NCBI GenBank assembly: GCA_049680185.1
Contig: JBAUHI010000032.1
Location: 3,767-67,766 of the forward strand
Length of the DNA stretch: 64,000 bases
Direction of reading: 5' to 3'
Origin: Gemmatimonadales bacterium
GTDB lineage: Bacteria; Gemmatimonadota; Gemmatimonadetes; Gemmatimonadales; GWC2-71-9
The number at the start of each line of letters is the position of its first letter. Position 1 is the stretch's first letter. Below, in pieces: positions 3,709 through 62,348 of the stretch. The position numbers were made by a program, and so were the translations under genes. The notes under the pieces were generated by a model that saw only the letters and a program-made list of their open reading frames with translations, made no database searches and was not told the origin of the DNA.

Positions 3709-5544
3709 TCATTCGACCGGTTCGAACGCCCAGTTGAACACAGACACGAGGAGCAACGCCGCCCCCGCCAGGATGATCGGAAGCTTGACCCCGACCAGGA
3801 AGCCAACGAGGAAGATCAGGATCCCCCACGCCGCGAAGAACGGCCAGTAGCTCGACGGGGGCATGTGGATCCCCGCTCCCGATCCGCGGACCGGCTCGGG
3901 CAACGTGCCGCCGGCCTTCCGCTTGGCCGCCCAGAGCGGATCGCGTCCGTCGACCGTCGGGATCTGCTCGAAGTTGTGCGGCGGCGGCGGCGAGGGAATG
4001 GACCACTCGAGGGTGGCGCCGCCCCACGGATCGGCCGGGACCGGTGTCGTCGGGCGGGTGCGCCAGGTCTTGATGATGTTGATCAGGAAGACCAGGAATG
4101 AGGTGCCCAGGATGAGCGACCCGGCGGTGGCGACCGCATTCCAGAACGAGAACCCGAGTCCGGTCGGGTAAGTGTAGACCCTGCGTGGCATCCCGTTGAG
4201 TCCCAAGAAATGCATCGGGAAGAACGTCAGGTTGAACCCGATCAGCATGAGCCAGAAATGCACCTTGCCCAAGCGCTCATCCAGCATCCGGCCGAACATC
4301 TTGGGGAACCAGTAATAGGCGCCCGCCGTCAGCGCGAAGATCGACCCGCCGAAGAGCACATAGTGGAAGTGCGCCACGACGAAGTAGGTGTCGGTCTGCT
4401 GCAGGTCGGCCGGGGGCACCGCGTGCATCACGCCGGAGAGGCCGCCGATGATGAACATCGCGATGAACCCGAGCGCGAACATCATCGGCACCCGGAAGCG
4501 GAGACTGCCGCCCCAGATGGTGGCGATCCAGTTGAAGATCTTGACGCCGGTCGGGATCGCGATCAACATCGTGGTGAGCGAGAACACCGTGTCCGCGATC
4601 GGTCCCATCCCGACGGCGAACATGTGGTGGCTCCACACCCCGAACCCGAGGAACGCGATGAAGATGCCGGAGAACACCATCGCGGTGTAGCCGAAGATCG
4701 GCTTGCGCGAGAAGACCGGGAGCACTTCCGATACGATCCCGAAGGCCGGCAGGATCAGGATGTACACCTCGGGATGTCCGAAGATCCAGAACAGGTGCTG
4801 CCAGAGGACCGGATCGCCACCACCGGTCGGCACGTAGAAGCTGGTACCGAAGAATCGGTCCATCATCAGCAGGATCAGCGCGACCGTGATGACCGGGAAC
4901 GCCAGCAGCAGCAGCACCTGCGTGATGAGGCTCATCCACGTGAAGATCGGCATCCGGAGGAGCTTCATCCCGGGCGCCCGCATGTTGATGATCGTCGTGG
5001 CGAAATTGACCGCCGCCGCCAGCGAGGCGATGCCCAGCATCTGGAGGCCGAGGAGCCAGAAGTCGATGTTGATGGCCGGCGAATACTGGATGCTCGTCAG
5101 GTTGGCATATCCGAACCAGCCGGCGTTCGGCGCCGCGTGGAACAGGAAGCTCGAGTTGATGAACAGCCCGCCCAGCAGGAACACCCAGTAGCTGAAGGCG
5201 TTGAGCCGGGGGAACGCCACGTCCCGGGCACCGATCTGCAGCGGGATCATGAAATTGAAGAACATCGCCGACAACGGCATCACCGCGAGGAAGATCATCG
5301 TGGTGCCGTGCATCGTGAAGACCTGGTTGTACACCTCGGGCGACAGGAACGTGTTGTCCGGCCGCCCCAGCTGCCAGCGGAGCAGCAGCGCTTCGAGCCC
5401 ACCGATCAGGAAGAAGAGGAACGCGGTCGCACCGTAGAGGATGCCGATGCGCTTGTGATCGACGGTGGTGATCCAGCTCCACACGCCCGTCGCCTCGTGG
5501 GAGGCGCCGGCGGCGTGGTCGCGGGGAAGGGCGGCAGTGGCCAT
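3709..5544 (-). CDS. ctaD: cytochrome c oxidase subunit I
   Basis: 611 aa. Heme-copper oxidase signature WIFGHPEVYILILPAFGIVSEV, HHMFAVGM and FVVAHFHYVLFGG. Two extra C-terminal helices. Confidence 0.95.
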   Translation of the reverse strand: MATAALPRDHAAGASHEATGVWSWITTVDHKRIGILYGATAFLFFLIGGLEALLLRWQLGRPDNTFLSPEVYNQVFTMHGTTMIFLAVMPLSAMFFNFMIPLQIGARDVAFPRLNAFSYWVFLLGGLFINSSFLFHAAPNAGWFGYANLTSIQYSPAINIDFWLLGLQMLGIASLAAAVNFATTIINMRAPGMKLLRMPIFTWMSLITQVLLLLAFPVITVALILLMMDRFFGTSFYVPTGGGDPVLWQHLFWIFGHPEVYILILPAFGIVSEVLPVFSRKPIFGYTAMVFSGIFIAFLGFGVWSHHMFAVGMGPIADTVFSLTTMLIAIPTGVKIFNWIATIWGGSLRFRVPMMFALGFIAMFIIGGLSGVMHAVPPADLQQTDTYFVVAHFHYVLFGGSIFALTAGAYYWFPKMFGRMLDERLGKVHFWLMLIGFNLTFFPMHFLGLNGMPRRVYTYPTGLGFSFWNAVATAGSLILGTSFLVFLINIIKTWRTRPTTPVPADPWGGATLEWSIPSPPPPHNFEQIPTVDGRDPLWAAKRKAGGTLPEPVRGSGAGIHMPPSSYWPFFAAWGILIFLVGFLVGVKLPIILAGAALLLVSVFNWAFEPVE

Positions 5545-7417: not shown

Positions 7418-7655
7418 GAGGAGGAGACGAGAGGAGAGGAGGCGATGGACGTGAGGAGGAGGTAAGGAATCAATGGTGGACTCGTGAGTCGCCGGCGACG
7501 TCATCCTGACACCGAGAGCCGCGCGGCCGAAGGATCGGCCAATCTGCCGATCGATCCTTCGGCCCTTCGGGCCTCAGGATGACGTGCTCGGAAAAGCCTC
7601 CCGCTCGCCTCTTCGCCTCCTCCCCTCTTCCTGCCTTTTCTCTTGATTCCCCCTC
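7418..7655. repeat. nested palindrome: purine-rich arm, GTCATCCTGA/GAAGGATCGG hairpin, pyrimidine-rich arm
   Basis: 7418-7469 is GAGGAGGAG-type purine tract. 7498-7538 is the left half of the core element and 7547-7585 its reverse complement. 7597-7655 is a CCTCCTC-type pyrimidine tract. It fills the gap between convergent genes. Confidence 0.85.
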
Positions 7656-8299: not shown

Positions 8300-8329
8300 G
8301 GGGGGAATATGGCTCGGATCGCCCCGGAC

Positions 8330-8496
8330 GTCATCCTGAGCAGAGCGAAAGATCGGCTGGCCTTCAGGGGTCCTCGTCATCCTGAGCAGAGCGAACGATC
8401 GGCTGGCCTTCAGGGGTCCTCGTCATCCTGAGCAGAGCGAAGGATCGGCTGGCCTTCAGGGGTCCTCGTCATCCTGAGCAGAGCGAAGGATCGGCC
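8330..8496. repeat. tandem array, 46-bp unit x 3.6
   Basis: Units at 8330, 8376, 8422 and 8468: GTCATCCTGAGCAGAGCGAANGATCGGCTGGCCTTCAGGGGTCCTC. They are identical except unit position 21 (A, C, G, G). The last unit is truncated 3 nt before the GIY-YIG stop codon. Confidence 0.95.
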
Positions 8497-22040: not shown

Positions 22041-22155
22041 GGTGGGCGAAGAGCGGGCGAGGAGCGGGCGAGGAGCGGACGGGAAGCGGGCAACAAGCGG
22101 GCGTAGTGGGGGCGGTGATCATGCACACCTACTCTGCCCGCTTCTTGCCCGCGCC
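22041..22155. repeat. GAAGAGCGGGCG-type oligomer tract with short complementary arm
   Basis: 22041-22105 is GGTGGGCGAAGAGCGGGCGAGGAGCGGGCGAGGAGCGGACGGGAAGCGGGCAACAAGCGGGCG. 22133-22155 is CTGCCCGCTTCTTGCCCGCGCC. It fills the gap between convergent genes. Confidence 0.8.
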
Positions 22156-22878: not shown

Positions 22879-23498
22879 TGCACCCACTCCTTGAGCGGCG
22901 CCAGTGATCGACGCAGCTTGTCGAACGCGAGTCGCAGTCGGGTCTTGACCGTCCCCATCGGGATCGAGAGTTCCTGCGCGATCTCCGAATGGGTCAGGCC
23001 GTGGAAATACGCCAGGCGCACGGCAGCGCGCTGATCCTCCGGCAGCTGGAGCAATGCCGCGTGGATCCGTTCGTGCACGTGCCAACCGGGCGTCGCCGCT
23101 TCATTGACCTCCGGCGCCGCGGTCGCGAGTTCGCCCAGCACGCCGAGCGAGTGGGCCTGGTCGGCAGTGCGGAGGCGGCGGCCTCGGCGGCGGAGGCGGT
23201 CGATGGCCCGGTTCCGCGCCACCCGGATGAGCCATGGCATCAATCCACGGGGATCAGGCTCCACTTCCCCGATGCGGTCCCACACCGTGCCGAACACCTC
23301 AAAGACCACCTCTTCGGACTCTTCCCGATCGCGCAGGATCGATTGCGTCACACCGAGGAGCCAGGGAGAGGCCAGGTCGATCAACTCCGAAAGCGCCCCC
23401 TCATCCCGTGCGAGGAGGCGCTCCCGGAGGGAGGCCGGTGCGGTGGTCGAGAGCACCGCCAGCACCGGCGTGGAGCGAATATCCCGTTCGGGCGTCAC
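22875..23498 (-). CDS. ECF RNA polymerase sigma factor
   Basis: GTG 23498 overlaps the upstream stop as GTGA. Contains WLIRVARNRAIDRLRRR and LTHSEIAQELSIPMGTVKTRLRLA. Confidence 0.85.
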   Translation of the reverse strand: MTPERDIRSTPVLAVLSTTAPASLRERLLARDEGALSELIDLASPWLLGVTQSILRDREESEEVVFEVFGTVWDRIGEVEPDPRGLMPWLIRVARNRAIDRLRRRGRRLRTADQAHSLGVLGELATAAPEVNEAATPGWHVHERIHAALLQLPEDQRAAVRLAYFHGLTHSEIAQELSIPMGTVKTRLRLAFDKLRRSLAPLKEWVQ

Positions 23499-24001
23499 GG
23501 CTTCTTCATCATCCCCGTGTCGTGCTTCATCATGCCGTCGCCGTGCTTCATCATCCCCATGCCGTGAAGCGGCGCCTTGCCGACCACCGCGTGATGTGCT
23601 TTGGACCAGACGACGACGGTGTTGTACTCCCACACCTTGGCGCTCGCGGGTACGGTAAAGGTGCCGCCGCCCTGGCCGCCGGGGAGCTCGCCGAGCTCGA
23701 GCGCCGTGTCGTCGACCTTGCCGTCCTTGGTGAGGTAGACGAAGCCGTCGGGGGAGCCGGTAGACGTGAAGTCCTTGCTGATCTCGAGGAGGTGTTTGCC
23801 GTCCTTGACCGACATCGTGAAGGTCCCGGCGGCCGTGTGGGGTGCCACCCCTTCGAACGCGACCGCCGGCATCGCGTGATCCTTCATCATCATCTTGCTG
23901 TGGTCCATCTTGCCCGAATCCATCCCCATCCCGCCGCCAGCCTGGGCTGCGAGCGGTGCTGCGAGGAGGAGGAGAGCGAGGGGGGTCAGACGCATTCGCA
24001 T
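23495..24001 (-). CDS. secreted DM13-domain protein with Met/His-rich termini
   Basis: Signal MRMRLTPLALLLLAAPLAAQA. GMGMDSGKMDHSKMMMKDHAM near the N-terminus. DM13-like core GTFTMSVKDGKHLLEISKDFTSTGSPDGFVYL. C-terminal HGMGMMKHGDGMMKHDTGMMKKP. Confidence 0.75.
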   Translation of the reverse strand: MRMRLTPLALLLLAAPLAAQAGGGMGMDSGKMDHSKMMMKDHAMPAVAFEGVAPHTAAGTFTMSVKDGKHLLEISKDFTSTGSPDGFVYLTKDGKVDDTALELGELPGGQGGGTFTVPASAKVWEYNTVVVWSKAHHAVVGKAPLHGMGMMKHGDGMMKHDTGMMKKP

Positions 24002-24082: not shown

Positions 24083-24490
24083 TCATCGCTTCGAGGTCGG
24101 GGACCGGGACCTGGTCCGGCGAAATGGCGCCCTCGCGATCGCTTCGCCGTGAGCGTTCGACCAGATGATCATCGTGTCATACATCCTGAGGTCCGTCCCA
24201 TCGGGGATCGGGAAGGTCCCTCCCCCGATGTCCTTGATCTCTGCCACTTGCAGCGCCGTCGAGTCGACGACTCCACGCACGGCCAGATAGATGAAGGCAT
24301 CGGGGGCACCCCTGGTCTCGAAGTCATCCGAGAGTCTGATCCAGTGCCTCGCGCCATGCGTCACCATCTGGTAGCTCCCCGAGACACTGTTGGGGGCATA
24401 CGCAGTAAAGAAGACCGGGCGGCTCATCCGCTGTGCCGCGAGCGGGGTCGCAACGAGGAGCAGGACGAGGGGAACGATGGGCAGGCGCAT
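24083..24490 (-). CDS. secreted DM13-domain protein
   Basis: Signal MRLPIVPLVLLLVATPLAAQ. Core SGSYQMVTHGARHWIRLSDDFETRGAPDAFIYL, paralogous to the downstream gene. Confidence 0.7.
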   Translation of the reverse strand: MRLPIVPLVLLLVATPLAAQRMSRPVFFTAYAPNSVSGSYQMVTHGARHWIRLSDDFETRGAPDAFIYLAVRGVVDSTALQVAEIKDIGGGTFPIPDGTDLRMYDTMIIWSNAHGEAIARAPFRRTRSRSPTSKR

Positions 24491-25448: not shown

Positions 25449-26594
25449 ATGCCTTCGTTCCTCCACACCCTCCTCGACTCCCCTGGCCCCTCCGGCTTCG
25501 AGACCGCTCCCGCTCGCCTCTGGCGCAAGGAGGCGGAGTCATTCGCCGATGACGTCCACGGCGATGTCCACGGGAATTCGTACGCGAGCGTCTTCGCAAC
25601 AGGCGAGAAGCGGGTGAAGAGCGGGCGGAAAGCGGGTGGACCGACTGGCACCGCCCACGACTCACGACCCACGACGCCGACGATCATGTTCGCCGGCCAC
25701 ATCGACGAGATCGGCCTGATGGTGGTCCACATCGACGAGAAAGGGTTCCTCACCTTCGACGGCATCGGCGGGTGGGACACCCAGGTCTTCGTGGGGCAAC
25801 GCGTCACGATCCTTGGCCGCAAGGGCCCCGTTCCCGGCGTCATCGGCAAGAAGGCGATCCACCTGATCGACAAGGACGATCGCGACAAGGTCTCCAAGAC
25901 AGACGACCTCTGGATCGACATCGGCGCCCGGAAGAGGGCCGAGGCGGAAAGCAAAGTCCGGGTGGGAGACGCCGGGGTGCTCACCTCGAAGGTGGAAGAA
26001 CTCCCCAACGGCAGGCTCGTAAGCCGAGCACTCGACAACCGCGTCGGCGCCTATGTGGTGCTCGAAGCGCTGCGCTTGATCGCCAAGGGTAAGTCACGCG
26101 CCACCCGCCACCCACCACAGGTGAACGTGACGGCGGTGGCAACGACGCAAGAAGAGATCGGTTACACCGGTGGCGGCGCCCGCACCTCCGCCACCACACT
26201 CGACGCCACGGTCGCCATCGCGGTCGACGTGACCCATGCCACCGACTATCCCGGCATCGAAAAGCGGAAGCACGGCGACTTCAAGCTCGGTGGCGGTCCG
26301 GTCCTCTCTCGCGGCTCCGCGGTCAATCCCGCCGTGTTCGATCTGCTGGTGGCGGCGGCAGAGCGGGAGAAGATCCCCTACACCGTGGAGGCGGCCCCCC
26401 GCGCCACCCATACCGACGCCGACAACATCTTCACCGCCCACCGCGGCGTCGCGACGGGCCTCGTGAGCGTCCCGCTCCGGTATATGCACTCGCCCAACGA
26501 GATGGTGGCCATGGAAGACCTGGAGCGCGCCGCTCGACTCCTGGCCGCATTCGCTAGGAGCGTGGGGCCGGAGACGAGTTTTGTGCCTCGGTGA
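25449..26594 (+). CDS. M42-family aminopeptidase (FrvX/TET-like)
   Basis: ATG 25449 (MPSFLHTLLDSPGPSGFE). Contains FAGHIDEIGLMV, ALDNRVG and TTQEEIGYTGG. Carries an unusual ~24-codon insertion at 25605-25676. Confidence 0.85.
   Translation: MPSFLHTLLDSPGPSGFETAPARLWRKEAESFADDVHGDVHGNSYASVFATGEKRVKSGRKAGGPTGTAHDSRPTTPTIMFAGHIDEIGLMVVHIDEKGFLTFDGIGGWDTQVFVGQRVTILGRKGPVPGVIGKKAIHLIDKDDRDKVSKTDDLWIDIGARKRAEAESKVRVGDAGVLTSKVEELPNGRLVSRALDNRVGAYVVLEALRLIAKGKSRATRHPPQVNVTAVATTQEEIGYTGGGARTSATTLDATVAIAVDVTHATDYPGIEKRKHGDFKLGGGPVLSRGSAVNPAVFDLLVAAAEREKIPYTVEAAPRATHTDADNIFTAHRGVATGLVSVPLRYMHSPNEMVAMEDLERAARLLAAFARSVGPETSFVPR
25605..25676 (+). repeat. in-frame repeat-like insertion inside the M42 gene
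   Basis: GAGAAGCGGGTGAAGAGCGGGCGGAAAGCGGGTGG..CACCGCCCACGACTCACGACCCACGAC. The left part matches the oligomer tract at 22041-22105. Encodes EKRVKSGRKAGGPTGTAHDSRPTT. Confidence 0.6.
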
Positions 26595-26775
26595 GCTTGC
26601 AGCTATCGGCTGTCAGGTGCTCTAGAAACACACGAGCCTCCGTGGACCTCCACGGGGGCTCGCTGATTTAGTTCTGCCTGATAGCTGATAGCTGTTAGCT
26701 GATATCTGTTAGCTGCTAGCTGCTCGCTGCTCGCTGCTCGCTGCTCGCTGCTCGCTGCTAGCTGCAAGCTGCAAG
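26595..26775. repeat. AGCTGATAGCTG/GCTGCTC oligomer palindromic element
   Basis: The outermost GCTTGCAGCT (26595-26604) pairs with AGCTGCAAGC (26764-26773). Central hairpin GAGCCTCCGTG-gacctc-CACGGGGGCTC at 26635-26661. Long right arm of CTGATAGCTG and (GCTGCTC)n at 26678-26775. Confidence 0.85.
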
Positions 26776-28332
26776 CTACCCGCCCGCCTTTGCCACCGCC
26801 TCGCGCACATCCTTGTCGCTGTCCAACGCAAGTTCCGCCAGCGCCGCCTGCGCCACGGGGCCGCCGGCCAGCTGCAGCCCCTCGATGGCCCAGATCCGCT
26901 GCGCCACCGGCTTCCGCTTGAAGAGCTTTCCGCCGGGACTCGCCATCCGGATCAGCGCTTGCACCCCCTCGGCCGATCCGCTCCGCCCCACCGAGTAGCA
27001 CACCTCGCGAAGGACCTCGGGCACGCTCTCTTCTTCCAGGATCGACACCAACCGGAGTCCGAGCGCCGGGAGCTTCTTCCCGTCGATCACCAACACGGCC
27101 TGCAAGCGCACCCCCGGCGCTGGATCCCGGAGTGCCGTGCGCAGTGGCTCGACGGTGCCGGGGGTGCCGATCTTGGCGAGCGCCACGATCGCGGCGCGCT
27201 TGACCCGCTCATCGGGGTGGGTCACATGTCGCGCCAGCACCGGCACCGCCGTCACGAGCTTGAGCTCACCGCACAGCTCCGCCACGTTCCGGATCACGAA
27301 CCAGTCGCCATGTTCCAGCGTCTTGACGACGACATCCGATCCGTGGGCCGACTCGACCAGCGCGTCAAAATAGTGGCGCCGCTCGATGATGGTGGGTGCT
27401 GAGGCCAGAAGGTCGAGCAACACGTCGGTGGCACTGTCGCCCATCCGGGCCATCACCAGCAATGCGTCGCGCTTGCGCTCGGGTTGCGGCACGAAACGCG
27501 CGATCTCCTCCAGCGTCCTCCGTGGGAGGAGCCGCTTGAGCGCGATGTTGTACATCCGTGCCACTTCCTTCGACCCCGCCTGCGGCTCCGCCTCCACCAC
27601 CCGCACCGCCGCACGGAGGATCCCGTCCCAGTCGGCCTTGAGCGCCGCGGCGTCAGCGCTCCCGGCCAACTCGCTGAGCAAGTGGGTCACGGCGGCGCCG
27701 GCGGGATCCGCGGCGATCGCCAGCGAGAGCTCGTCGATCCGGGCGGTCACGTCGTTGGCCGAAGGGACATAGTGCATCATCCCGCCGTCCTCGGGTGTCA
27801 TCCCACCAGGGCCGAGTGCCGGCAGCTCGACCGAACCACGCGGCGGTGCCGACCCGATCACCTTCCGTGGCACCTCTCGTGGCGGGCCTGCCGTCGCTGC
27901 ATCGGTGGACCCCAGCGCTGACACGGCCGGGCCCGACGACTCTGCCGCCGCCAGCCGGAACTGGCTCGCGCCCGGCTCGCCGACCGCGGTGATGAACTCT
28001 TGGATGTGACGATAGGTGCCGGCGGGCGCCGCAAGCGCCCGCAGGAGCGAGAGGAGCGGTCCCGCGCCGGTGCCTTCCGGCAGGATGATCTCGCCGACGC
28101 CGTGCTGCAGCATCTGGCGAGCGAACGCCGCTGCCTCGGTGGCTTCTTCCGGTGCCAGGATGCCCTGGTACGCCAGCCCCTCGGACGTGGCGCCCAACTC
28201 CACCGGGCTCACACCCAGCGTGGTCACGAGCGCGCGGAACGCCGCCTTGTGCTCCTCCTTCGCGCCAGGACGATCGCGCAGAAGGACGACGACATTCCAG
28301 ATCTCGGAGACCACCGACAGGGGAGCGCTCAT
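26776..28332 (-). CDS. HEAT-repeat protein
   Basis: 518 aa. The C-terminal half has PVLARHVTHPDERVKRAAIVALAKIG, LRDPAPGVRLQAV and DSDKDVREAVAKA repeats. The N-terminal half is unassigned. Confidence 0.65.
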   Translation of the reverse strand: MSAPLSVVSEIWNVVVLLRDRPGAKEEHKAAFRALVTTLGVSPVELGATSEGLAYQGILAPEEATEAAAFARQMLQHGVGEIILPEGTGAGPLLSLLRALAAPAGTYRHIQEFITAVGEPGASQFRLAAAESSGPAVSALGSTDAATAGPPREVPRKVIGSAPPRGSVELPALGPGGMTPEDGGMMHYVPSANDVTARIDELSLAIAADPAGAAVTHLLSELAGSADAAALKADWDGILRAAVRVVEAEPQAGSKEVARMYNIALKRLLPRRTLEEIARFVPQPERKRDALLVMARMGDSATDVLLDLLASAPTIIERRHYFDALVESAHGSDVVVKTLEHGDWFVIRNVAELCGELKLVTAVPVLARHVTHPDERVKRAAIVALAKIGTPGTVEPLRTALRDPAPGVRLQAVLVIDGKKLPALGLRLVSILEEESVPEVLREVCYSVGRSGSAEGVQALIRMASPGGKLFKRKPVAQRIWAIEGLQLAGGPVAQAALAELALDSDKDVREAVAKAGG

Positions 28333-41289: not shown

Positions 41290-41490
41290 GTGAACGATGA
41301 AAAGTGAAAGGTGAACTGGATCTGGATGCGCTCGGCGGCCCGCTGATCACACGTCATCCTGAGGGGCCTTCAGGCCCCGAAGGACCGGCCTGCATAACGA
41401 CCCGATCCTTCGCTCTGCTCAGGATGACGTGCCTGTCCCGTCGGTCCCTTCCGATCCCACCCGTTCACCGTTGACCGTTTACCGTTCACC
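41289..41490. repeat. nested palindrome: GTGAAC-type outer arms around a GTCATCCTGAG/GAAGGA hairpin
   Basis: Outer left arm 41289-41319 is GGTGAACGATGAAAAGTGAAAGGTGAACTGG. Inner element at 41351-41430. Outer right arm 41457-41490 is CACCCGTTCACCGTTGACCGTTTACCGTTCACCC. Confidence 0.85.
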
Positions 41491-44414: not shown

Positions 44415-44532
44415 CCGTTACAGCACCTGGTCGAGCAGGGCGATTTGCAGATGGCTAGATTGCTGACCGCCGGCTATGTCCCGCTTGTCGCTTCTCGTTT
44501 CCCCTGACCCCAACCTCCGACCCCCGACCCCC

Positions 44533-48217: not shown

Positions 48218-48306
48218 GGTTAGAATCAGGGCGTGCAGGTAGGTCGCGGGGGCATGAGACCCACCCGCGACCTGCGACCCCTGACCGCCACCCGAGACCC
48301 GATCCC

Positions 48307-61007: not shown

Positions 61008-62348
61008 ATGCGCCGTCCACTGACCGTCGCCAGCGGCCTCACGGCCGCGATGCTGCTCGCCCGGGCGTTCGGCACCCCGGCGCTGACCGATCCGACCGGC
61101 GCCCCGCTCCCCGCGTCACTCCACCTGTACTTCCCGCCCCTCAACATCCTGCTTGCTCCGGCCTTCGACCTCTGGGACGGCGTCTCGATGCTGGGGATGC
61201 GCCAGCTGGTGGCGTTCTTCCTCTGGAGCGCGGTGGCGATCGTGGTGTGGCGGGTGGGCGGACAGGCGTACAGGCGCACGGGCGCACGGGCCGCGTCCGC
61301 GCAGCGTCGGATCGTCCGTGCACTGTTCACTGAGCTGGCGATCATCGTCGGCGGCGTGTTCGCCCTCCTGCTCTTCGGGCTCGTAGGCCTGGTGTGGCAC
61401 CGACCGATGGTCTCCCTCGCAGGCGTGCCCGCCGGCCAGCTGGTGGTCGACCTGCACACCCACACCAATGTCTCACACGATGTCCACGGGACGCTGATGC
61501 GCGGGTTCGACGCCGACGCGGCCCGACGCTGGCACCAGCGCGCCGGATTCGACGCGTTCTTCGTCACCGACCACAACCTCATCGACGGGATCCCCGCCAA
61601 CGGCGGCCCGGTCGACGCCACGCCCGCCCTCTGCCCCGGCGAGGAGGTGAGTGCCGCCGACCAGCACGTGGTCCTCCTCGGCAACACCACCCTGGTGGAC
61701 AACCACGATTACGGCGACTCCCTCCCCGGGATCCTGCGGCTCTTCCGGGACGCGGGCCCGCGCTATGGTGCTGTGGCGATCGCCTCGATCCCGGAATACG
61801 ACAAGAACCATTTCCACGACCTGACCACGTTCGCCGATGCCGGGGTGCGCGGGTTCGAGATCGTCAACGGGGCGCCCAAGGCCAATGAGCTTACGCTGGC
61901 GCACCGCGATACGGTCATCGCGTTGGCCCGTGCACGGGATCTTCTGCTCTTGGGCGTGAGCGACAGTCACGGATGGGGTGCCACGGTGGAGGGGTGGACG
62001 CTGGTGCGGGTGGGTAGCGCACCGACGCACGGAGGCTCAGACGCTCAGGAAGCACCGGGAGCGGTCATTCCGAGCGTCCGAGCGTCAGTGCGCCTGTCCA
62101 CTTTCCCGCCGGTCTGCACCGCGATCCTGACCGCCCTTGAGCGCGGCTACGACGCCACCCAGATCGCCGCCCGCCACCGGCTGCGTCCCGATGCGTGGTG
62201 GCCCCGCTGGCTCACGCCGTTCGCGGTGGTCTGGGAGGGATGGCGGGCCATGGGCCTGGCCCAGGCATTCGGCTGGCTGCTGTGGATCTGGGGACTCGCA
62301 CTCATTGCGGCCCACCGCCCGGTCACTTCGTCAGGCGACAGACCTTGA
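61008..62348 (+). CDS. membrane-anchored PHP-domain-like metal phosphoesterase
   Basis: 446 aa. N-terminal and C-terminal TM helices. VVDLHTHTNVSHD and FFVTDHN motifs. Confidence 0.65.
   Translation: MRRPLTVASGLTAAMLLARAFGTPALTDPTGAPLPASLHLYFPPLNILLAPAFDLWDGVSMLGMRQLVAFFLWSAVAIVVWRVGGQAYRRTGARAASAQRRIVRALFTELAIIVGGVFALLLFGLVGLVWHRPMVSLAGVPAGQLVVDLHTHTNVSHDVHGTLMRGFDADAARRWHQRAGFDAFFVTDHNLIDGIPANGGPVDATPALCPGEEVSAADQHVVLLGNTTLVDNHDYGDSLPGILRLFRDAGPRYGAVAIASIPEYDKNHFHDLTTFADAGVRGFEIVNGAPKANELTLAHRDTVIALARARDLLLLGVSDSHGWGATVEGWTLVRVGSAPTHGGSDAQEAPGAVIPSVRASVRLSTFPPVCTAILTALERGYDATQIAARHRLRPDAWWPRWLTPFAVVWEGWRAMGLAQAFGWLLWIWGLALIAAHRPVTSSGDRP

Follow-up and report, generated by a model that had tools for sequence, protein, structure and literature searches.

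The M42 aminopeptidase gene and its setting

The window, by which we mean the whole 64 kb stretch of DNA analysed here, comes from a MAG of Gemmatimonadales, an uncultured soil bacterium, and its features are collected in Table 1. The product of the gene that hosts the inserts matches the Pfam family PF05343 (Peptidase_M42, E=1.3e-83) with 280.9 bits, the gathering cut-off being 23.2, over profile positions 10-292 of 292, and its phmmer matches in the PDB are TET aminopeptidases (down to 1.5e-54). The AF2 model of the protein has a mean pLDDT of 85.8 and superimposes in Foldseek on the TET structures 5ds0, 1vhe, 9qr6 and 1y0r with TM values of 0.8-0.9. The conserved M42 residues H84, D86, D196, E235, E236, D260 and H347, presumably in metal-ligand roles as in PhTET2, are all kept and are invariant across 117 sequences. 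An independent assembly (L001) contains 2128 nt identical to the window locus. A Pfam scan of six neighbouring proteins and of the second array-bearing gene described below matched no transposase family.

Table 1. Position, strand and basis of the array features and host gene in the window
Feature	Position	Strand	Basis
11-mer array GAGCGGGCGAG x5.5, intergenic, directly 3' of the stop of a DinB-family gene	22041-22155		TRF, pattern test
Intact M42/TET-type aminopeptidase gene, 381 aa, host of inserts	25449-26594	+	Pfam, PDB phmmer, AF2/Foldseek
Site-1 insert, 24 extra codons (EKRVKSGRKAGGPTGTAHDSRPTT), in frame	25605-25676	+	Alignments, loop length
Site-1 left arm, three 11-nt units AAGCGGGTGAA / GAGCGGGCGGA / AAGCGGGTGG	25608-25640	+	TRF, pattern test
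Site-1 right arm, three 7-nt units CCCACGA/CTCACGA	25654-25675	+	TRF, pattern test, unit search
Site-2 insert, ~+7 aa, KSRATRHPPQ, heptamer array CACCCGC x3.4	26091-26120	+	TRF (26095-26118), lag-7 scan
Intergenic inverted arrays that flank a terminator-like hairpin, with convergent genes on either side	26595-26788		TRF, arm search
GCGACCY heptamer array, intergenic, with short complementary GGTCGCG upstream	48240-48301		TRF, unit search
8-mer array GGCGCACA x4.4 in hypervariable loop of gene 61008-62348	61257-61291	+	TRF, lag-8 scan, alignment
In-frame inverted 8-mer array hairpin in gene 61008-62348	62010-62110	+	RNA fold, alignment

Two array-built inserts in one enzyme

The first insert (site 1) sits between the strand of residues 44-48 and the metal-ligand strand of residues 78-84. 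The loop from GNSYA to IMFAGH comprises 32 residues in the window protein and 9 in 83 of 101 Gemmatimonadales orthologs, which agrees with the lengths of about 31 and about 8 residues proposed in the earlier note, and the PDB homologs, too, show a gap of ~24 residues against the window protein. The codons are exactly those read in that note, and the ortholog alignment that it set as a check supports the boundaries and the number of extra codons. The loop is short in outgroup orthologs and in every solved M42 structure, and its long form is confined to one clade, which identifies the segment as an insertion rather than an ancestral loop. It is retained in frame, as had been proposed, in a coil that the AF2 model predicts with low confidence (residues 49-77, pLDDT ~49-62), and judging by pLDDT, DSSP and the topology of the strands, it probably faces the surface. 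The inserts of the M42 protein carry a net positive charge and are nearly devoid of hydrophobic residues.

At the DNA level, site 1 consists of two tandem arrays separated by a spacer. TRF reports a period-11 array at 25608-25638 (AAGCGGGTGAA x2.8) and a period-7 array at 25654-25675 (CCCACGA x3.1), and the TRF tracts are imperfect (75-88% matches). The second unit of the left arm has CGG in place of the consensus in-frame TGA. Three CACGACN units in a row are found solely at 25649-25675 of the 64 kb (expectation 0.01). The right arm is the same as that of the related loci L162 and L163, where its partner is a left arm of GTCGTGA type. The window copy of site 1 is a chimera of an 11-mer left arm and a heptamer right arm.

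The earlier note had described the insert as a repeat-like palindrome; its tandem-unit make-up is confirmed, while its palindromic character is weak in the window copy. The RNA fold of site 1 gives z -2.0 against dinucleotide shuffles and z -1.6 when the arms are shuffled one by one (24 of 300 shuffles fold equally well), and a local DNA cruciform was rejected there on a DNA fold z of +0.2. Under the stringent test, in which the arms are shuffled separately, the window copy and that of L163 do not qualify as palindromes. Inspection of the sequence after the right arm revealed no T-run, and hence no intrinsic terminator inside the M42 gene, and Rfam at gathering thresholds gave no match anywhere in the 64 kb window.

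The same gene carries a further insertion, which the earlier note had overlooked, at site 2, where the loop measures 18 residues in the window protein and 11 in 86 of 101 orthologs; in relatives this site is enlarged by 8 to 27 aa. The insert immediately precedes the strand that ends in the catalytic residues E235 and E236, and its loop is predicted as coil, with the confidence of the AF2 model only moderately lowered. Its unit, CACCCGC, gives the GCGGGTG core when reverse-complemented. Pairing of the G-rich left arm of site 1 with the C-rich array of site 2 was rejected, as shuffled partners did as well in 97 of 500 trials and other windows of the M42 gene pair better than this duplex.

Arrays elsewhere in the window

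Arrays of short units are abundant in the window, with 16 heptamer arrays against 0.45 expected from shuffles, nearly all of them at gene edges, and four octamer arrays where 0.1 would be expected. The 64 kb holds at least five unit families, and four arrays are genic and in frame. The intergenic array at 22041-22103 belongs to the unit family of the site-1 left arm and has an inverted partner at 22128-22155. Right after the M42 stop lie GCTTGCA/GCTATCG/GCTGTCA units followed by (CTGATAG/CTGCTCG) x14, and the arms at 26594-26617 and 26677-26700 are 83% complementary. The array at 48240-48301 shares its unit family with the site-1 arms of the related loci L002, L163 and L162.

Genic arrays were examined in two genes of this one 64 kb window. 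The second gene, 61008-62348, encodes a membrane protein unrelated to M42. Its hairpin at 62010-62110 folds as RNA at -54.9 kcal/mol (z -4.98; arm-wise shuffle z -4.1), and the insert is missing from distant homologs in the alignment; the array at 61257-61291 gave no significant hairpin in the fold test.

Site inserts in related genomes

About 14 relatives form an insert-bearing clade with fast-changing arrays at site 1, and many have arrays at site 2 as well. Site 1 measures 9 aa and site 2 measures 11 aa in more than 80% of the 101 orthologs, and expansion is confined to clade A (P0001-9, at both sites) and clade B (P0010-13 and P0093), the placement being that of a crude NJ tree; P0003, compared at the protein level only, is similar to the window protein at sites 1 and 2 yet falls in another part of this tree. 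All relatives were taken from protein databases or from intact ORFs, a sampling that out-of-frame alleles would escape. The genome scan for insert-bearing relatives contributed only L002 and L042, and a scan of metagenome contigs returned 80 loci whose matches of ~1020-1060 nt are those of baseline-length orthologs, with no new insert-bearing relatives. Inserts homologous to those of the window are present in more than 10 independent metagenomes. The reading as a 72-nt in-frame insertion holds, and that as a single recent event does not: site 1 has an old, clade-wide and rapidly turning-over occupant.

Site 1 holds, in most relatives, two heptamer arrays in inverted orientation, whose unit varies by lineage and whose arms remain complementary: (GTCGTGA)x4 facing (TCACGAC)x4 in L162, (GGGTCGC)x8 facing (GCGACCY)x3-4 in L002, GGACTCG facing GAGTCCC in L164 and L166, and GGGGCCT facing AGGCCCC in L042. 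L169 has (CCACGCA)x4 and L170 (CCCAGCA)x4, and at site 2 of L171 a GTCGCGA arm faces ACTCGCA; inverted hairpins of GTCGCGA type are found at site 1 of clade A and, independently, at site 2 of clade B. The relatives' hairpins are more stable than dinucleotide shuffles (z -3.2 to -6.3), and arm-wise shuffling gives z -4.4 to -7.4 in six of seven (the exception is L163, z -1.2). RNAalifold yields a consensus stem of 16 pairs, with compensatory changes at 13. The encoded peptides are unrelated between lineages, which have only the short unit families in common. From lineage to lineage the units diverge more than the coding sequence on either side, which would call for replacement events and weighs against colonisation by an intergenic element. 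Clade A members carry ~20-40 extra residues in total, split differently between the two sites, with P0007 and P0009 small at site 1 and large at site 2. An array stands directly 3' of the M42 stop in every relative, its unit again differing by lineage.

Kinship of genic and intergenic arrays, and avoidance of stops

Within the 64 kb window, AGCGGG-N5-AGCGGG-N5-AGCGGG is confined to 22052-22101 and 25609-25636 (shuffle expectation 0.00), which bears out the suggestion of the earlier note that the insert contains oligomers of the 22041-22105 type. Across 859 kb of related loci, the best non-self match of the left arm is site 2 of L164, with 34 of 42 positions (81%) in the same reading phase; the intergenic array of the window at 22045-22097 reaches 31/42, the other top matches are arrays directly 3' of the M42 stop in L164 and L166, and the background, taken as the best score per locus, has a median of 23/42. 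The best non-self matches are all AGCGGG 11-mer arrays, in line with the intergenic-type material that had been proposed. Among the 168 loci (859 kb), period-11 AGCGGG arrays are restricted to the window, L164 and L166, where they lie in the gene and also directly after stop codons. The right-arm heptamer/GGGTCGC family is likewise found between genes, at 526-600 of L163 and at 48263-48301 of the window.

Genic 11-mer arrays read in the phase AGC GGG TGA have CGG, TCG or CAG in place of TGA, whereas the intergenic copies retain GGGTGA, and the fourth unit of L162 is GTCACGG, not GTCGTGA. All 14 relatives examined at sites 1 and 2 are in frame, in a sample biased to intact ORFs. In-frame length combined with the removal of stops is a pattern expected only if the insert is translated. 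Neither element termini nor target-site duplications nor a conserved full-length consensus were found at the sites, so that transfer and convergent in-situ slippage are not cleanly separated by them; a direct duplication of flanking codons was not seen against the baseline ortholog L025, a comparison weakened by low-complexity junctions.

Comparison with known repeat systems

Rickettsia palindromic elements (RPEs) form families of ~100-150 bp in which both the full-length consensus and the encoded peptide are conserved (reviewed in PMC10969869). The Gemmatimonadota arrays resemble them as hairpin-capable repeats that are found both between genes and in frame in unrelated housekeeping genes, and that are translated and compatible with the fold; the in-frame inserts, in two M42 loops and two regions of gene 61008-62348, lie in predicted coil, which is RPE-type placement. 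They differ in being paired tandem arrays of 7-11 nt units with no fixed consensus and no conserved peptide, and the site inserts share neither over their full length. The M42 inserts are best read as putative functional analogues of RPEs with a different structure.

Long simple-sequence repeats (LSSRs, Mrazek-type) and heptamer arrays, the cyanobacterial STRR among them, offer a second comparison. Units such as GGGNATC in Xanthomonas and Nostoc (PMC4692102) and TAACTGA in Beggiatoaceae (PMC4679880) have been described, with 70-75 convergent inverted heptamer pairs in Xanthomonas (PMC4692102). The window arrays share with these heptamer LSSRs the over-representation of tandem runs (at least three units of 5-11 nt), the position near gene ends, less than ~50 nt from a stop or start and often as convergent inverted stem-loop pairs, and G-rich units with G-quadruplex potential. 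They differ by the many families of 7-, 8-, 9- and 11-mers, none of them dominant, and by inverted arrays in frame in conserved enzymes, so that coding regions are not excluded.

In Borg genes the repeats are perfect and A-rich, run in direct orientation only, and have a unit length always divisible by three (PMC9879509). Like the window arrays, they evolve fast in intergenic DNA and in ORFs, add disordered segments and differ between homologs; the window arrays, unlike them, are imperfect, GC-rich and organised as inverted pairs, with units of 7, 8 and 11 nt rather than perfect triplet-divisible direct repeats.

REP/BIME elements have a conserved imperfect palindrome of 20-40 nt as consensus and are associated with a RAYT transposase, and MITEs have terminal inverted repeats and target-site duplications. 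As small palindromic non-coding repeats at 3' ends between convergent genes, which plausibly stabilise or terminate transcripts, the arrays recall both; however, a REP consensus, terminal inverted repeats, target-site duplications and an associated RAYT or other transposase were not seen in the available sequence, and the internal tandem-unit architecture is foreign to both classes.

Origin of the inserts

We consider it probable that an intergenic element made of inverted tandem arrays colonised permissive loops and is translated there as disordered peptide. The lineage would carry a genome-wide population of tandem arrays with units of 7, 8, 9 or 11 nt, mostly paired in inverted orientation on the two sides of intergenic terminator hairpins, with their starts immediately at stop or start codons. 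Some of these arrays would have made their way into two permissive loops of the M42 protein, each at the N-terminal end of a beta-strand that has active-site residues at its other end. Within the gene the arrays would keep evolving as DNA, gaining and losing units, with arm complementarity most likely kept by hairpin-templated copying and with arms swapped for other array families found nearby in the same genome, while purifying selection on the enzyme would let pass only stop-free variants of a total length divisible by three. The product would be a low-complexity disordered loop of Gly/Ser/Arg/Lys from the left arm and Thr/His/Asp/Pro from the right arm, and the peptide as such would be a by-product. 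The window copy may represent a late chimeric state, in which the heptamer right arm was kept and the left arm replaced by an 11-mer array, and in which the hairpin would therefore be largely lost.

An unlikely competitor is pure microsatellite growth in situ, by which a lineage-specific slippage bias with a period of ~7 would expand seeds in the loop codons without transfer of sequence, the likeness to intergenic arrays reflecting shared mutational bias and composition only. Such growth would account for the lack of visible termini or target-site duplications, for a unit that differs in nearly every lineage at the same codon position, and for the array after the M42 stop, which likewise changes its unit by lineage; a heptamer excess is, moreover, a general trait of some high-GC genomes (PMC4692102, PMC4679880). 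It is at odds with the 42-nt block that is 81% identical and in the same phase between site 1 of the window and site 2 of L164, where the background is ~23/42, with the confinement of AGCGGG 11-mers to three related genomes in both genic and intergenic positions, and with the GTCGCGA-type hairpins that appear independently at different sites in the two clades; slippage alone does not produce an inverted partner arm. Less credible still is an adaptive protein feature, a selected basic and flexible surface extension of the TET particle that might bind nucleic acid, a membrane or a partner, for example, with the repetitiveness of the DNA being incidental. The positive charge and the scarcity of hydrophobic residues would suit this, as would the ~20-40 extra residues in every clade A member, shifted to site 2 in P0007 and P0009, but it is the complementarity of the arms that is conserved and not the peptide sequence, the composition follows from G-rich and C-rich arrays translated in all three phases, the same arrays are present in non-coding DNA, and an unrelated membrane protein behaves alike.

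The remaining explanations have little in their favour. A phase-variable contingency locus, in which changes by a single 7- or 11-nt unit would switch the frame and thereby turn M42 on or off, would draw on unit lengths that are indivisible by three, so that any single-unit slippage shifts the frame, and on copy numbers that differ among relatives; we regard it as very improbable given that the imperfection of the arrays suppresses slippage, that 14 of 14 relatives are in frame (with the bias to intact ORFs noted above) and that the host gene codes for a housekeeping peptidase of the cytosol rather than for a surface antigen. Hardly any weight attaches to an insert that is left untranslated, through ribosomal bypass or removal from the mRNA, or to an assembly artefact. 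Bypass is known from T4 gene 60 and the mitochondrial byp elements, which the stable hairpins within the coding sequence of the relatives resemble; against bypass or excision, the inserts are always multiples of three and stop-free despite their 7- and 11-nt units, specific substitutions erase would-be stops, and no Rfam family matches. An artefact is contradicted by the identical sequence in the independent assembly and by the recurrence of homologous inserts across metagenomes.

Going beyond colonisation of permissive loops by an intergenic element, the arrays might be a self-propagating, hairpin-templated class specific to this Gemmatimonadales lineage, with arm complementarity actively maintained; this stronger proposal we hold to be doubtful. 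If true, it would imply movement between genic and intergenic positions without a transposase-type footprint, upkeep either through a selected mRNA structure, acting on translation or decay, or through a dedicated templating mechanism, and a standing source of new disordered segments in conserved enzymes.

Significance

To our knowledge, Rickettsia provides nearly the only known case of palindromic repeats that have colonised conserved genes in frame. Here, arrays of 7-, 8- and 11-nt units persist across many lineages in an enzyme of essential type, where exclusion from the ORF would be expected, and the traces of selection are legible in the sequence, as the total length is in frame, would-be stops are removed and the arms co-vary. 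Filters that select orthologs by length can go wrong on such inserts, as can structure models, and in MAG quality control they may be taken for assembly errors. On the reading favoured here, intergenic "junk" arrays can enter a conserved enzyme and give rise to new floppy protein loops. The relatives lend themselves, as a natural series, to the questions of how protein sequence arises from non-coding repeat DNA, how the complementarity of hairpin arms is kept up, and how heptamer arrays originate in high-GC soil bacteria.

Two expanded loops in an M42/TET-type aminopeptidase

The tetrahedral aminopeptidases are the best PDB relatives of the M42 product (E down to 1.5e-54), and an AlphaFold2 model built from 117 homologs (mean pLDDT 85.8) matches TET structures with TM 0.8-0.9. 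Judged by its sequence the enzyme looks functional, because every residue that is invariant across the 117 homologs is kept (H84, D86, D196, E235, E236, D260 and H347). The exact protein (P0001) is also annotated in a Gemmatimonadales MAG.

Two segments of the protein are expanded: site 1 and site 2 (26091-26120). Among 101 Gemmatimonadales orthologs with locatable anchor motifs, the GNSYA-to-IMFAGH segment (site 1) comprises 9 residues in 83, versus 32 in the window, and the VVLEALR-to-TAVATTQEE segment (site 2) 11 residues in 86, versus 18; alignment with PDB homologs from archaea, Thermotoga and Bacillus leaves gaps of about 24 and 7 residues, respectively. Since no homologous long loop was found in unrelated lineages among these orthologs and PDB homologs, the site-1 segment is a derived insertion rather than an ancestral loop, as the earlier note had argued from its unusual length. 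In a neighbour-joining tree built from 347 gap-free columns, both sites are expanded in clade A (P0001-P0009), site-1 inserts are smaller in its sister clade B (P0010-P0013), and the outgroups show baseline loop lengths. Inserts among relatives range from +2 to +32 aa at site 1 and from +1 to +27 aa at site 2; on the sequences compared, the site-1 insertion is clade-wide and hypervariable, and not private to the window genome.

In the model, site 1 (residues 49-77) is a coil, with pLDDT of about 49-62 over most of its length, flanked by strand 44-48 and by strand 78-84, which terminates at H84; at site 2 (residues 214-225) a coil joins helix 195-213 to strand 226-232, followed by E235/E236. 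This order places both inserts at the N-terminal ends of strands and the active-site residues at the C-terminal ends, and from the topology of the alpha/beta fold both inserts would face away from the active site across the sheet.

Repeat units and folding of the inserts

The codons of site 1 read as the earlier note had written them, and its comparison with intergenic oligomers at 22041-22105 holds: three AGCGGG motifs at 11-nt spacing occur in the window only at 25609-25636 and, in intergenic DNA, at 22052-22101 (expectation 0.00 from 100 dinucleotide shuffles). The heptamer triple is found only at 25649-25675 (expectation 0.01). The palindromic character ascribed to this copy was barely borne out, with z of -2.0 for the RNA fold, +0.2 for the DNA fold and -1.6 when the arms were shuffled separately (24 of 300 shuffles equalled its fold). 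The fold is weak because the left arm, an 11-mer array, lacks complementarity to the right arm, which has kept the CCCACGA units seen in the related loci L162 and L163.

M42 gene DNA was obtained for twelve relatives, and both sites were read by codon. Site 1 consists in most of them of tandem heptamer arrays arranged as an inverted pair, and at site 2 of L171, from clade B, lies an independent hairpin of inverted heptamers (GTCGCGA opposite ACTCGCA; -60 kcal/mol in a 111-nt segment). Against dinucleotide shuffles the relatives' hairpins reach z of -4.7, -3.2, -6.3, -5.5, -4.8 and -3.3; separate shuffling of the arms, which controls for G-rich/C-rich asymmetry, gives -4.4 to -7.4, with the exception of L163 (-1.2). 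The consensus fold of seven site-1 inserts, weakened by the imperfect alignment of low-complexity arrays, has a 16-pair stem with compensatory double changes at 13 pairs.

The window site-2 unit CACCCGC (26093-26118) matches exactly, in reverse complement, the GCGGGTG core of an 11-mer (L164 2137-2178), and 11-mer arrays with this core fill site 2 in both L164 and L166. Inversion of the array in place, within the lineage of the window, L002 and P0003, could explain the match, or it could be a coincidence within low-complexity sequence. In L171 (positions 1-260; the contig of P0093) the M42 ORF begins at VTADVHGNS, and the conserved N-terminal stretch of about 35 residues is partly present upstream, in a different frame or joined to another ORF; rearrangement, frameshift or a chimeric contig could each account for this end. 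G-rich left arms carry GGG runs 4 nt apart (L163 1657-1700, with at least six tracts; L002 3160-3225; window 25611-25640). As such runs fit the G3N1-7 quadruplex motif, which experiments have shown for the heptamer repeats of Xanthomonas (PMC4692102), the coding mRNA could contain a G-quadruplex.

Coordinates and repeat units of the features described
Feature	Position or locus	Strand	Details
M42/TET-type aminopeptidase ORF	25449-26594	+	381 aa; Pfam PF05343, E=1.3e-83
Site-1 codons	25605-25676	+	EKRVKSGRKAGGPTGTAHDSRPTT
Period-11 array (TRF)	25608-25638		AAGCGGGTGAA x2.8
Period-7 array (TRF)	25654-25675		CCCACGA x3.1
Second gene	61008-62348	+	446 aa
8-mer array, second gene	61257-61291		within one hypervariable region
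Inverted 8-mer array hairpin, second gene	62010-62110		-54.9 kcal/mol
Inverted array pairs in window (examples)	10386/10538, 12515/12559, 22044/22135, 26595/26677, 33147/33281, 60536/60591, 60880/60952		
Site 1	L162		left (GTCGTGA)x4; right (TCACGAC)x4
Site 1	L002		left (GGGTCGC)x8; right (GCGACCY)x3-4
Site 1	L163		left (GGTCGCG)x6; right (CACGACY)x4
Site 1	L164, L166		left GGACTCG/GGAGTCA; right (GAGTCCC)x4
Site 1	L042		left (GGGGCCT); right (AGGCCCC)
Clade-B short inserts, heptamer arrays	L169, L170, L168		(CCACGCA)x4, (CCCAGCA)x4, (GCACGAR)x4, respectively
Unit after M42 stop codon	window, L162, L163		GCTATCA
Unit after M42 stop codon	L164, L166		AGCGGGYGAR (11-mer)
Unit after M42 stop codon	L165		GGAGCGGGT
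Unit after M42 stop codon	L002		GAGGCGAA x11
Unit after M42 stop codon	L167		GGCGGTAA x5
Unit after M42 stop codon	among the relatives		GGAACCCTG

Kinship with intergenic arrays

Defined by at least three units and at least 85% lag identity, 16 heptamer arrays were found in the window versus 0.45 expected, and four octamer arrays versus 0.1. A recurring layout is seen in non-coding DNA: one array begins a few nt from a stop (or start) codon, next comes a GC-rich hairpin or another repeat, and beyond that an inverted array. Heptamer arrays also adjoin start codons, ending 3-10 nt 5' of the ATG (41461-41490, 44510-44532 and 48263-48301); they occupy 5' leaders besides 3' flanks, and could affect translation initiation. 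In the window (26595) and in every relative (L002, L162-L167 and L169-L170) an array begins 0-5 nt past the M42 stop codon, and since its unit differs in almost every lineage, array turnover at this fixed position would be very fast.

In-gene units and intergenic arrays share unit families. Of 168 loci (859 kb), only three, the window, L164 and L166, have period-11 AGCGGG arrays, and each of the three has them both within M42 and in intergenic DNA. The best non-self match of the 42-nt left arm is site 2 of L164 (34/42, with the reading phase shared), followed by window 22056 and site 2 of L166 (31/42 each) and by the arrays past the stop codons of L164 and L166, over a per-locus background with a median of 23 and a 95th percentile of 25. 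Intergenic members of the GGGTCGC/GTCGTGA heptamer-arm family lie at 526-600 in L163 and at 48263-48301 in the window.

A palindromic GTCATCCTGAGCGAAGCGAAGGATC-type repeat is present in the window as a 46-mer (x3.6, 98% identity, 8329-8495) and at 7500-7590 and 41405-41430, as well as in L166 (1555-1715), L164 (2775-2859) and L002 (about 4290-4470). It recurs in intergenic DNA, frequently nested amid short-unit arrays, and looks like a separate dispersed family.

A second gene with array regions

The second gene is conserved, and its product has no Pfam match; in one database source a close relative bears the name PHP domain-containing protein. Two hypervariable in-frame regions are found only in close relatives and are absent from distant homologs (401-413 aa). 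The hairpin in this gene has z of -4.98 with dinucleotide shuffles and -4.1 with arm-wise shuffles; at its spot the relative P0134 has an EGRRDGAA tandem repeat of about 40 aa.

Elsewhere, a 21-nt x3 repeat (23504-23566) in gene 23495-24001 (- strand) encodes the Met/His-rich C-terminal tail, HGMGMMKHGDGMMKHDTGMMKKP, of a DM13-domain protein, adjoined by a DM13 paralog (24083-24490) and an ECF sigma factor. Unlike the 7/11-nt arrays, this repeat is triplet-compatible.

Translation and origin of the inserts

Since 7- and 11-nt units run through all three phases, an array stays open only if its unit is stop-free in every phase. Each of the three in-gene 11-mer arrays carries CGG, TCG or CAG in the unit read in the AGC GGG NNN phase, and intergenic 11-mers retain GGGTGA, which would give TGA in that phase; the fourth heptamer of L162 is GTCACGG instead of GTCGTGA, and the in-phase TGA is gone. 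All 14 genes read have insert lengths divisible by three; the relatives were found via intact proteins, so that frameshifted alleles would escape. The in-frame retention suggested by the earlier note is upheld, and stop avoidance and frame together speak against ribosomal bypass, excision from the RNA and an assembly artefact; an independent assembly contig, L001, is moreover identical to the window over 2128 nt. We regard non-translation or artefact as scarcely credible, and phase variation as hardly more so.

We consider it fairly likely that intergenic inverted tandem-array elements colonised permissive loops. Within genes the arrays would go on evolving through gain and loss of units, with arm complementarity kept, most simply, via intrastrand template switching, and arms would be swapped for neighbouring arrays; selection on the enzyme would pass in-frame, stop-free versions, the peptide being a tolerated by-product. 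Two sites per gene in two genes, together with families common to gene and flanks, hint that the arrays spread locally and not by random insertion across the genome. Growth of the arrays purely by slippage in situ is an unlikely alternative. An adaptive basic loop appears more doubtful still: K/R are abundant in the insert peptides, as are G/S/T/P/A, with hydrophobic residues nearly none, and G-rich and C-rich arrays encode such residues in any phase.

In function the arrays resemble the Rickettsia palindromic elements (RPE; reviewed in PMC10969869), and they fall outside that class because a conserved consensus and a conserved peptide are lacking. In architecture they are close to heptamer long-SSRs from Xanthomonas and Nostoc and to the TAACTGA arrays of Beggiatoaceae (PMC4679880), except that many unit families occur together here and several arrays lie within genes and in frame. 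The tandem repeats of Borgs (PMC9879509) likewise create disordered regions, but their units are perfect, triplet-compatible and direct. In a full-text search of limited coverage, no paper turned up that dealt with both Gemmatimonas and palindromic intergenic repeats. The finding is real, and in essence the inference of the earlier note is correct; compared with what was proposed there, the element has a greater age, changes more and is more general, and such inserts are not unique to M42, as the second gene contains two hypervariable array regions as well.
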